Source: Escherichia coli O157:H7 (GTDB taxonomy: Bacteria > Pseudomonadota > Gammaproteobacteria > Enterobacterales > Enterobacteriaceae). From it: a stretch of DNA of 64,000 bases. How positions within the stretch are numbered: the first letter of the stretch is position 1; every line of letters begins with the position of its first letter. The position numbers and the translations under genes were made by a program. Below the pieces are notes generated by a model. That model had not been told where the DNA came from. It did not search any database and was given only the letters and a program-made list of their open reading frames with translations. Where the stretch lies: NCBI RefSeq assembly GCF_013167455.1, contig NZ_CP038328.1; one strand, written 5' to 3'. This document shows positions 45,410-60,649 of the stretch, piece after piece.

Positions 45410-47974
45410 ATGTCAACTCCACTTCAAGGAATTAAAGTTCTCGATTTCACCGGTGTGCAATCTGGCCCATCTTGTACTCAAATGCTGGCCTGGTTTGGCG
45501 CTGACGTCATTAAAATTGAACGCCCCGGCGTTGGTGACGTAACGCGTCACCAGCTGCGAGATATTCCTGATATCGATGCGCTTTACTTCACCATGCTTAA
45601 CAGTAACAAACGTTCTATTGAGTTAAATACCAAAACAGCGGAAGGCAAAGAGGTAATGGAAAAGCTGATCTGAACCGCCCCGGGTTTCCTGGAGAGTGTT
45701 TTATCTGTGAACTCAGGCTGCCAGATCATCGTTTCCGATGGAAGCATAATAAGCTTTTTCTGCTTCTGCCGGAGGAGTATGGCCCAGCCTTCCCAGCAAT
45801 CGTCGATTGTTATACCAGTCCACCCACGTTAGTGTGGCCAGTTCCACTTCTGCACGGTTTTTCCAGCTCTTACGGTGTATTACCTCCGCTTTGTAAAGAC
45901 CATTGATGCTCTCAGCCATCGCGTTGTCATACGAGTCGCCTGTACTCCCTGTTGATGCCAGTAATCCGGCTTCTTTTAGTCGCTCCGTATAGGCCAGTGA
46001 CACATACTGAGAGCCTTTATCGCTGTGATGGATGGTGCCAGACGGACGACGGGCCCACAACGCCTGCTCCAGCGCATCCAGCACGAATGTCGTTTCCATA
46101 GACGATGAGACCCGCCACCCCACGATGTATCCGGCAAACACATCAATGATAAACGCCACATAGACGAAGCCCTGCCATGTGCTGACGTAAGTAAAATCAG
46201 CCACCCACAGCTGGTCAGGTCGTTCTGCCACGAACTGACGGTTTACGCGGTCGCCTGCGGCAACGGCTTTCCGGCTGATGGTCGTACGGACCTTTTTACC
46301 CCGGAGAACACCGGCAAGTCCCATAACCGCCATGAGACGTGCCACTGTACATCTGGCCACCCTGATTCCTTCCCGTAACAACTGACGCCAGACTTTACGC
46401 ACACCGTACACCTGATGATTTTCATCGTATACGCGCTGTATCTCTCTCTTCAGCCAGTCGTCGTGCTGCGCACGGGCACTGCGTTTATCCGGATGATGTC
46501 GCTGTTGCTGACAATGGTAATACGTTGACGGGGCAATATGCAGTTCGCTGCATACCGGTCCGACCCCGTACTGCTCACGCAGCTTATCCAGCAGTGGCAT
46601 CATTTTTTCCAGAGGCGGTCGAACTCCGCCTTCGCAAAATAAGCGGAAGCCTGGCGAAGGATATCGTTACTGCGGCGCAGTTCACGATTTTCACGTTCCA
46701 GCTCTTTCAGACGCTGACGTTCAGCGCTGGTGAGCCCACCATCACCGCCCCCGGTATCCCGCTCATGCTGGCGAACCCAGACACGCAGAGTCTCCGGCGT
46801 ACAGCCAATCTTTGGGGCAATGGAACAAATTGCCGCCCACTGTGAGTCATATTCATCCTGACTTTCCAGAACCATACGAATCGCCCGCTGACGGACTTCG
46901 GGGGAAAAACGAGTATTTTTAGTCATCCTGTTTACCTCTTTCTCAGGGAGTTTAGTCTCCAGGATTTCCGGGGCGGTTCAGATCCGCGAAGCTGATATCT
47001 TAGTCGAGAACTTTCATCCAGGGGCCATTGATCACATGGGCTTCACCTGGGAGCATATTCAAGAAATCAATCCACGTCTGATTTTTGGTTCGATCAAAGG
47101 GTTTGATGAGTGTTCGCCTTATGTGAATGTAAAAGCCTATGAAAACGTTGCTCAGGCAGCGGGTGGCGCGGCATCCACTACGGGTTTTTGGGACGGTCCG
47201 CCGCTGGTAAGCGCTGCAGCGTTGGGTGACAGCAACACCGGAATGCATTTACTGATCGGTTTACTTGCTGCTTTGCTGCATCGCGAAAAAACGGGGCGTG
47301 GGCAACGAGTCACCATGTCAATGCAGGATGCCGTATTGAACCTTTGCCGCGTGAAATTACGCGACCAGCAGCGTCTCGATAAATTGGGTTATCTGGAAGA
47401 ATACCCGCAGTATCCGAATGGCACATTTGGTGATGCAGTTCCCCGCGGAGGTAATGCGGGTGGTGGCGGTCAGCCTGGCTGGATCCTGAAATGTAAAGGC
47501 TGGGAAACTGATCCTAACGCCTATATTTATTTCACTATTCAGGAGCAAAACTGGGAAAACACCTGTAAAGCCATCGGCAAACCAGATTGGATTACCGATC
47601 CGGCATACAGTACAGCCCATGCCCGACAGCCACATATTTTCGATATTTTTGCTGAAATCGAAAAATACACTGTCACTATTGATAAACATGAAGCAGTGGC
47701 TTATTTGACTCAGTTTGATATTCCTTGTGCACCGGTTTTAAGTATGAAAGAAATTTCACTTGATCCCTCTTTACGCCAAAGCGGCAGTGTTGTCGAAGTG
47801 GAACAACCATTGCGTGGAAAATATCTGACAGTTGGTTGTCCAATGAAATTCTCTGCCTTTACGCCGGATATTAAAGCTGCGCCTCTATTAGGTGAACATA
47901 CCGCTGCGGTATTGCAGGAGCTGGGTTATAGCGACGATGAAATTGCTGCAATGAAGCAAAACCACGCCATCTGA
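45410..47974 (+). pseudogene. frc: Formyl-CoA:oxalate CoA-transferase gene frc (yfdW) disrupted by IS629
   Basis: N-terminal 87 codons (45410..45670, ...EVMEKLI) and the remainder (46981..47974, starting within [24 protein letters not shown]...) are separated by a 1310-bp IS; the reading frame is continuous once the IS and one TSD copy are removed. Confidence 0.88.
45671..46980 (-). mobile_element. IS629 (IS3 family), copy B, 1310 bp
   Basis: terminal IRs TGAACCGCCCCGGGTTTCC...GGATTTCCGGGGCGGTTCA; orfB 45713..46603, orfA 46600..46926 ([29 protein letters not shown]...); flanked by GATC/ATC duplication. Confidence 0.9.
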
Positions 47975-48027
47975 TATTAACGGGGGCTTCTGGCTCCCAA
48001 TTTATAAAAATTTCGAGGTTATTAATC

Positions 48028-57798: not shown

Positions 57799-60649
57799 TG
57801 GCAATCACTAAATCAACTCCGGCACCATTAACCGGTGGGACGTTATGGTGCGTCACTATTGCATTGTCATTAGCGACGTTTATGCAAATGTTGGATTCCA
57901 CTATTTCTAACGTCGCAATACCGACAATATCTGGCTTTCTGGGAGCATCAACAGACGAAGGCACCTGGGTTATCACCTCGTTTGGCGTAGCAAATGCCAT
58001 TGCGATCCCTGTTACCGGCAGGCTGGCACAAAGAATAGGCGAATTAAGGTTATTTTTACTTTCAGTCACTTTTTTTTCGCTGTCTTCCTTAATGTGTAGT
58101 TTATCGATCAATCTTGATGTGCTGATATTTTTTAGAGTCGTTCAGGGGTTAATGGCAGGGCCGTTAATTCCACTGTCACAGAGTTTATTATTAAGGAATT
58201 ATCCACCAGAAAAAAGAACATTTGCTCTGGCATTATGGTCAATGACCGTGATTATCGCTCCGATATGTGGGCCGATATTGGGCGGTTATATTTGTGATAA
58301 CTTTAGCTGGGGTTGGATATTTTTAATCAATGTCCCTATGGGGATTATCGTCCTGACATTATGCTTAACCTTACTTAAAGGAAGAGAAACTGAGACTTCA
58401 CCGGTCAAAATGAATCTACCAGGACTGACCCTGTTAGTGCTCGGTGTTGGTGGCTTGCAAATTATGCTTGATAAAGGGCGCGATCTGGATTGGTTCAACT
58501 CGAGTACAATAATAATATTAACAGTAGTATCAGTTATTTTTCTGATCTCTTTAGTCATTTGGGAGTCGACCTCAGAGAACCCGATTCTTGATCTCAGTTT
58601 GTTTAAGTCCCGTAACTTCACCATTGGTATTGTGAGTATCACATGCGCGTATTTATTTTACTCTGGAGCGATCGTCCTTATGCCGCAGTTACTCCAGGAA
58701 ACGATGGGGTATAATGCGATATGGGCCGGACTTGCTTATGCGCCCATCGGCATCATGCCACTATTAATTTCACCTTTGATAGGACGTTATGGCAACAAAA
58801 TAGACATGCGGGTGTTGGTGACATTCAGTTTTTTGATGTATGCGGTTTGCTATTACTGGCGTTCTGTGACATTTATGCCAACGATTGATTTTACAGGTAT
58901 CTGAACCGCCCCGGGTTTCCTGGAGAGTGTTTTATCTGTGAACTCAGGCTGCCAGATCATCGTTTCCGATGGAAGCATAATAAGCTTTTTCTGCTTCTGC
59001 CGGAGGAGTATGGCCCAGCCTTCCCAGCAATCGTCGATTGTTATACCAGTCCACCCACGTTAGTGTGGCCAGTTCCACTTCTGCACGGTTTTTCCAGCTC
59101 TTACGGTGTATTACCTCCGCTTTGTAAAGACCATTGATGCTCTCAGCCATCGCGTTGTCATACGAGTCGCCTGTACTCCCTGTTGATGCCAGTAATCCGG
59201 CTTCTTTTAGTCGCTCCGTATAGGCCAGTGACACATACTGAGAGCCTTTATCGCTGTGATGGATGGTGCCAGACGGACGACGGGCCCACAACGCCTGCTC
59301 CAGCGCATCCAGCACGAATGTCGTTTCCATAGACGATGAGACCCGCCACCCCACGATGTATCCGGCAAACACATCAATGATAAACGCCACATAGACGAAG
59401 CCCTGCCATGTGCTGACGTAAGTAAAATCAGCCACCCACAGCTGGTCAGGTCGTTCTGCCACGAACTGACGGTTTACGCGGTCGCCTGCGGCAACGGCTT
59501 TCCGGCTGATGGTCGTACGGACCTTTTTACCCCGGAGAACACCGGCAAGTCCCATAACCGCCATGAGACGTGCCACTGTACATCTGGCCACCCTGATTCC
59601 TTCCCGTAACAACTGACGCCAGACTTTACGCACACCGTACACCTGATGATTTTCATCGTATACGCGCTGTATCTCTCTCTTCAGCCAGTCGTCGTGCTGC
59701 GCACGGGCACTGCGTTTATCCGGATGATGTCGCTGTTGCTGACAATGGTAATACGTTGACGGGGCAATATGCAGTTCGCTGCATACCGGTCCGACCCCGT
59801 ACTGCTCACGCAGCTTATCCAGCAGTGGCATCATTTTTTCCAGAGGCGGTCGAACTCCGCCTTCGCAAAATAAGCGGAAGCCTGGCGAAGGATATCGTTA
59901 CTGCGGCGCAGTTCACGATTTTCACGTTCCAGCTCTTTCAGACGCTGACGTTCAGCGCTGGTGAGCCCACCATCACCGCCCCCGGTATCCCGCTCATGCT
60001 GGCGAACCCAGACACGCAGAGTCTCCGGCGTACAGCCAATCTTTGGGGCAATGGAACAAATTGCCGCCCACTGTGAGTCATATTCATCCTGACTTTCCAG
60101 AACCATACGAATCGCCCGCTGACGGACTTCGGGGGAAAAACGAGTATTTTTAGTCATCCTGTTTACCTCTTTCTCAGGGAGTTTAGTCTCCAGGATTTCC
60201 GGGGCGGTTCAATCATTTTGCCGCAGTTTTTTCAGGGATTCGCCGTTGCCTGTTTCTTTTTACCCTTAACAACGATTTCGTTTTCAGGCTTGCCAGATAA
60301 TAAATTTGCCAATGCCTCGAGTATGAGTAATTTTTTTCGTACCTTGTCAGGATCAGTTGGTACGTCGTTGACAATGACGCTGTGGGGACGACGCGAATCG
60401 TTACACCATAGTCAGTTGACAGAAACCATCGATCAATTTAACCCCGTGTTTAATTCATCGTCACAAATTATGGATAAATACTATGGTTCGCTTTCAGGAG
60501 TTCTTAATGAAATTAATAATGAAATAACCCAGCAGTCACTTTCTATTTCTGCAAATGAGATTTTCCGTATGGCGGCTATTGCTTTTATCTTACTTACGGT
60601 TTTGGTTTGGTTTGCGAAACCGCCGTTTACAGCGAAAGGCGTTGGGTGA
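57798..60649 (+). pseudogene. emrY: MFS multidrug efflux pump gene emrY (EmrB paralogue) disrupted by IS629
   Basis: N-terminal 368 codons (57798..58901) and C-terminal coding sequence (60212..60649) flank a 1310-bp IS; frame restored on removing the IS and one ATC copy (...DFTGI/ILPQFFQGF...). Confidence 0.88.
58902..60211 (-). mobile_element. IS629 (IS3 family), copy C, 1310 bp
   Basis: same ends as copy B and identical OrfA/OrfB proteins (orfB 58944..59834, orfA 59831..60157); 3-bp TSD ATC at 58899-58901 and 60212-60214. Confidence 0.9.

Follow-up and report, generated by a model that had tools for sequence, protein, structure and literature searches.

The 64,000-nt stretch of Escherichia coli O157:H7 analyzed here (contig NZ_CP038328.1; hereafter the window) carries two identical copies of the insertion sequence (IS) IS629, copies B and C, in direct orientation on either side of the two-component system genes evgAS. 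Copy B interrupts frc and copy C interrupts emrY. This arrangement is best explained if IS629 subtype I inserted twice, in two separate simple events, which left evgAS intact and produced a pair of copies that is a good substrate for recombination. We hold this explanation with high confidence. A third IS629, copy A, lies elsewhere in the window and belongs to another subtype.

Structure and identity of copies B and C

Copy B (45671..46980) and copy C (58902..60211) both lie on the minus strand, the former in frc after codon 87 and the latter in emrY after codon 368. In a repeat scan and an alignment read base by base, the two copies proved identical at 1310 of 1310 positions and in direct orientation. 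They are separated by 11,921 bp, with a start-to-start distance of 13,231 bp. The identity runs 3 bp further to the left (ATC), because the target sites of both copies end in ATC. An earlier reading of this DNA, made without database searches (the sequence-only reading), had held that the two copies are identical and similarly oriented and that they enclose the segment frc'-oxc-yfdV-yfdE-evgSA-emrK-emrY'. The full alignment bears this out, coordinates included, and the same genes were found between the copies, yfdE being a pseudogene.

The element is 1310 bp long and is bounded by imperfect terminal inverted repeats of the form 5'-TG ... CA-3'. Its ends read TGAACCGCCCCGGG... and ...CCGGGGCGGTTCA, with arms that show 88% complementarity across 32 nt, flanks included. 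Two overlapping open reading frames (ORFs) were found in each copy. The product of orfA (108 aa; 46600-46926 in copy B and 59831-60157 in copy C, both on the minus strand) matched HTH_Tnp_1 (PF01527) in Pfam with an E-value of 2.4e-12. The product of orfB (296 aa; 45713-46603 and 58944-59834, likewise on the minus strand) matched rve, the integrase core of the DDE/RNase H fold (PF00665), with an E-value of 9e-28, and also HTH_21. At the overlap of orfA and orfB, Rfam identified the ALIL pseudoknot (RF01497), a stimulator of programmed -1 frameshifting, at 46529..46645 (minus strand) in copy B and at 59760-59876 in copy C. The score was 121.5 bits in both copies, compared with a gathering score of 50, and the match was complete over model positions 1-117. 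A 'programmed frameshift' is also recorded in the RefSeq annotation of an IS1203-family copy of serotype O111:H8 that we inspected.

Copies of the IS3 family transpose by a copy-out-paste-in route via a circular intermediate, and we take IS629 to belong to the IS51 group of this family. RefSeq contains copies labelled 'IS3-like element IS1203 family', in O157 and in other genomes, to which copies B and C are 100% identical. In O157:H7, IS629 has been described as subtypes I (nearest to IS1203) and III, which are 55-60 bp apart, with target-site duplications (TSDs) of 3-4 bp (Rump et al. 2011, PMC3271280). Copies B and C share with subtype I of O157:H7 the length, the ORFs, the frameshift signal, the ends and the size of the TSD, and they differ from known copies of this subtype only in their insertion sites, frc and emrY. 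They are canonical IS629 subtype I elements (an IS1203 isoform) of the IS3 family, with all of the expected structural features present. The intact ORFs and the lineage-specific insertions imply that IS629 would have transposed recently, as judged from sequence.

Each insertion splits its target gene in two. The 5' part of frc, the gene for formyl-CoA transferase, retains 87 codons (45410..45670, plus strand) and stops at a TGA formed by the end of the IS; the 3' remainder follows at 46981..47974 (plus strand). The 5' part of emrY retains 368 codons (57798..58901, plus strand) and also stops at a TGA of the IS, and its 3' remainder lies at 60212..60649 (plus strand). The transposase genes of both copies are antisense to the genes that they interrupt. 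In the yfdX-frc-oxc-yfdV-yfdE operon frc is the second gene, as emrY is in the emrKY operon. The insertions would abolish formyl-CoA transferase and the pump subunit EmrY, while leaving evgAS intact. The emrKY genes are activated by EvgA. The yfdXWUVE genes are under EvgA control (PMC6339873). Since both gene sets are under EvgA, the two insertions fall in EvgA-activated operons that flank evgAS itself.

Insertion into the O157:H7 backbone

Copy B is flanked by GATC on both sides (left, 45667..45670; right, 46981-46984), and copy C by ATC (left, 58899..58901; right, 60212-60214). Copy A (18584..19893, plus strand), which is inverted relative to copies B and C and lies inside insQ/tnpB of an IS200/IS605-family element, has the TSD TTC/TTC. 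In O157:H7 genomes with 100%-identical flanks, the corresponding empty sites are shorter, the element itself aside, by exactly 4 bp for copy B, 3 bp for copy C and 3 bp for copy A. These are the lengths of the three TSDs.

When the three IS copies and one TSD copy each were removed from the window, the remaining 60,060 bp showed a single mismatch to the genome of FRIK1989 (NZ_CP111101.1), at window position 6205 in ptsI. Positions 44000-64000 of the window, from which the IS and TSD copies had been removed likewise, showed one mismatch to Sakai, at 56696 in emrK. FRIK1989 has the closest backbone among the complete genomes, and it carries none of the three insertions. An IS at the A, B or C site was found in 0 of 5,426 complete E. 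coli genomes. Because each copy has its own TSD and the surrounding sequence is collinear with IS-free genomes, we conclude that each of the three copies entered a native O157:H7 backbone on its own, by simple insertion. On this basis, an O157:H7 lineage closely related to FRIK1989 most probably acquired IS629 subtype I twice, once in frc and once in emrY, by separate simple insertions. It is worth noting that the window has more IS insertions than point differences from the reference genomes, those at 6205 and 56696 being the only two across its IS-free sequence.

Clustering of the three insertions

A stretch of 42 kb holds three lineage-specific insertions, two of them in EvgA-activated operons. 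This raises the question of whether their positions are random. The clustering might reflect local re-insertion of IS629 ('hopping'), or selection that silences the outputs of the EvgA regulon, namely oxalate-dependent acid tolerance and EmrKY efflux. If 5.5 Mb contain 20-40 copies, a Poisson model gives a probability of 0.002-0.012 that at least three fall in one 64-kb window. None of the three sites is occupied in any of the 5,426 complete genomes, and the closest genome, only one single-nucleotide polymorphism (SNP) away in 60 kb, still lacks all three insertions. Identical copies in the same orientation, 13 kb apart, sit one in each of the EvgA-activated operons flanking evgAS. Moreover, O111:H8 strain 99.1145 (NZ_CP077481.1, 9043-10256) has an IS1203-family element that inserted independently between ypdI and yfdX.

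These facts, however, have to be set against the way in which the window came to attention: it was picked for looking unusual, so that a selection effect is at work. In a genome with about 20 new insertions, the chance of some triple within 42 kb is roughly estimated at about 0.2, and some O157:H7 genomes have at least about 40 IS629 matches each. Copy A is of another subtype and lies in an unrelated IS200/IS605 target, so that only copies B and C could be products of a 'hop'. According to Rump et al. (PMC3271280), IS629 showed no specificity for a target sequence. We therefore keep chance as the default account of the clustering and regard a non-random origin as unlikely. A more elaborate version would have copies B and C arise by short-range re-insertion or selection in a cattle-associated O157:H7 lineage, switching off both EvgA-activated operons, with the bracketed 13-kb unit perhaps serving as a mobilisable or amplifiable evgAS cassette like the IS1-linked evgSA of IncF plasmids described below. 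We regard this version as quite improbable.

Improbable alternatives: a composite transposon or an assembly artefact

As in a composite transposon, two IS copies flank a cargo segment here. One could suppose that the B-C pair arrived, or now acts, as a composite transposon of 14.5 kb with evgAS as its cargo. Since the two copies are direct repeats, the outer ends of the pair form a proper pair of left and right inverted repeats, and both outer flanks happen to read ATC. Some plasmid records also carry evgS-evgA segments beside IS1 (the two that we inspected are IncF plasmids). In the window, however, the sequence between the copies, like the flank on either side, is collinear with O157:H7 chromosomes that lack the IS, with at most one mismatch, and each IS has its own matching TSD, with no TSD shared by the outer ends only. 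Neither the complete E. coli genomes nor PLSDB yielded a B-C unit at another locus or on a plasmid with IS629 ends. The separate TSDs and the collinearity led us to reject a composite-transposon origin; arrival as a unit is excluded, and we give the proposal as a whole a very low probability.

The plasmid records deserve a brief description in their own right. A chromosomal evgS-evgA segment of 4.6-9.5 kb with about 97% identity was found in about 25 genuine plasmid records. In two of them, NZ_CP073948.1 (5785-11068) and NZ_CP018207.1 (5061-10344), both IncF, evgS-evgA lies beside an IS1 transposase gene and a ymgB/ariR-like gene. Plasmids have thus taken up the evgAS region through IS-associated events. 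Like the B-C block, these IS1-bounded segments consist of two IS copies that bracket a cargo including evgAS. Unlike them, the B-C block occupies its native chromosomal site, has a separate TSD for each IS, shows no sign of movement and involves another IS family. Four further PLSDB 'plasmid' records of 1.4-4.9 Mb hold the whole chromosomal locus and are apparently mislabelled chromosomes or fragments of chromosomes.

The junctions of copies B and C were also found in independent short-read assemblies, where three of the four were matched base for base, and the product of each such junction was carried by two to three runs. The Logan contig SRR4301513_132 (11,978 bp) spans exactly the sequence between the two IS copies and about 30 nt of IS on either side, shows no mismatch to the window and includes the left junction of copy C. 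Another contig, SRR575717_97, ends at the 5' part of frc plus 28 nt of the IS. For the right junction of copy C, no record of the partial product was found. That an assembler mis-placed or duplicated the IS copies is scarcely credible: multi-copy IS elements are a classic source of misassembly and no complete RefSeq genome shares the B and C insertions, but three of the four junctions are reproduced independently, the length of one contig matches the inter-IS distance, and the TSDs at both copies are clean and 3-4 bp long.

Dozens of metagenome contigs in Logan/ENA stop 0-2 nt from the copy B site in frc and contain no IS sequence. We rejected the resulting 87-aa Frc fragments as evidence of insertion, since these contigs simply end within codon 88 without an IS. 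The clustering of their ends is most likely a selection effect of the look-up, which asked for exactly 87 aa; a break point of strain variation at this position is the less likely reading.

Possible recombination between the copies

Copies B and C form a pair of long, identical direct repeats in the chromosome. RecA-dependent crossing-over between identical direct repeats of 1.3 kb is textbook biology. Crossing-over between copies B and C would excise a circle of 13,231 bp (one IS plus 11,921 bp) and leave frc'-IS-'emrY behind, so that evgAS, oxc, yfdV, yfdE and emrK would be lost in one step. Unequal sister exchange would give the reciprocal outcome, a tandem duplication of the 13,231-bp unit. 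Alternatively, the IS-excision enhancer (IEE) of O157:H7 could remove either IS or create adjacent deletions. The tandem duplication, the IEE-promoted excision and the composite movement of the unit had gone unmentioned in the sequence-only reading. The B-C recombinant would have ATC on both sides of the remaining IS and, because ATC precedes both copies, would resemble an insertion with a normal TSD.

Deletions associated with IS629, gene inactivation and IEE-promoted excision are documented in O157:H7 (Ooka 2009; Kusumoto 2011; reviewed in PMC9943667). The element and the host lineage are the same here; in contrast to those cases, only the substrate is present, and no deletion or excision product was observed. 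RecA recombination between copies B and C also differs in mechanism from the adjacent deletion that depends on IEE or transposase.

The locus had been described in the sequence-only reading as poised for loss, with a search for the deletion junction in related genomes as the way to check it. As the query for that search, we used a synthetic junction made of the left flank of copy B, the IS and the right flank of copy C, and a match had to cover at least 80% of it. Neither the frc'-IS-'emrY junction at this coverage nor directly adjacent flanks were found in any of the 5,426 complete genomes. The substrate part of the claim thus stands, since the copies are identical and direct and the named genes lie between them, whereas no recombinant was seen. 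Since none of the same genomes carries the parental insertions, the search has little power and is weak evidence. We conclude that a deletion-prone locus follows soundly from textbook biology, while no derivative of it was observed.

The earlier suggestion that copy A would allow large inversions fared less well. Copy A does lie in the opposite orientation at a distance of about 26 kb (25,777 bp from copy B), but it is not equivalent to copies B and C. It differs from them by 61 mismatches without indels (95.3% identity), and the longest identical run is 125 bp, which makes it a much poorer partner. Homeologous recombination is limited by mismatch-repair barriers. Because of the 61 mismatches and the short longest identical run, inversion between copy A and copy B or C should be much rarer than exchange between copies B and C.

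The insertion in frc probably also weakens expression of oxc-yfdV through polarity. Several points weigh against the consequences outlined above. Polarity on oxc-yfdV is an assumption, and IS629 in stx2 left downstream transcripts present in FRIK1275 (PMC7430833). The empty result of the deletion search, weak as it is, points in the same direction, and the carriage of IEE and the RecA status of the strain are matters that lie outside the window.

Genes in and around the bracketed segment

Downstream of the 3' remainder of frc, and all on the plus strand, lie oxc for oxalyl-CoA decarboxylase (48028..49722; 564 aa), the transporter gene yfdV (49792..50736; 314 aa), both intact, and yfdE (50810..51951), a pseudogene that is frameshifted into two ORFs. 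The annotations of Sakai and FRIK1989 likewise give yfdE as a pseudogene; this state is common to the O157:H7 lineage and does not result from the IS. On the minus strand follow evgS for the hybrid sensor kinase (52007..55600; 1197 aa) and evgA for the response regulator (55605..56219; 204 aa), both intact. The gene for the efflux-pump adaptor, emrK (56635..57798, plus strand; 387 aa), is also intact and contains the SNP relative to Sakai mentioned above. Literature searches turned up no description of IS629 within frc, emrY or evgAS. The insertion in O111:H8 strain 99.1145 lies in the promoter region of the yfdX-frc-oxc operon and has the same orientation as copies B and C.

For copy A, the 100%-identical counterparts are another class of copies, annotated 'IS3 family', that many O157:H7 genomes carry; it is probably subtype III of Rump et al. 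2011, as judged from its divergence. It is nested in insQ/tnpB, a gene of the RNA-guided endonuclease family, beside gltX (window 17698-20769), and thus forms an IS within an IS. The tnpA partner of the interrupted IS200/IS605-family element is annotated as partial in FRIK1989. In E. coli EPSSH018, 582 and Y5, an IS3-family element also adjoins an IS200/IS605 tnpA and insQ, but near ydcO. A truncated InsQ of 112 aa was found only in scaffolds that end the gene at an N-gap, where the edge base is native and not that of an IS. No record of the partial product predicted for the right junction of copy A was found.

At the right end of the window (62200-64000), a truncated dsdX pseudogene is followed by sucrose (csc) genes. 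The same arrangement is present beside dsdA in Sakai and FRIK1989, and it is unrelated to the IS copies.

Implications

The pair of insertions is real but ordinary strain-to-strain IS629 polymorphism, and it belongs to known biology. Polymorphism of IS629 and IS-linked deletions in O157:H7 were already known, so that the understanding of IS629 or EvgAS is unchanged. The practical value is small: the insertions in frc and emrY can serve as lineage markers for IS-typing of this O157:H7 clone. For the organism, the insertions would inactivate frc, which contributes to oxalate-dependent acid tolerance, and emrY, which is part of EmrKY efflux. In addition, the loss or amplification of evgAS, a regulator of the acid response, would become a one-step event, which could yield heterogeneity in acid resistance in a food-borne pathogen.

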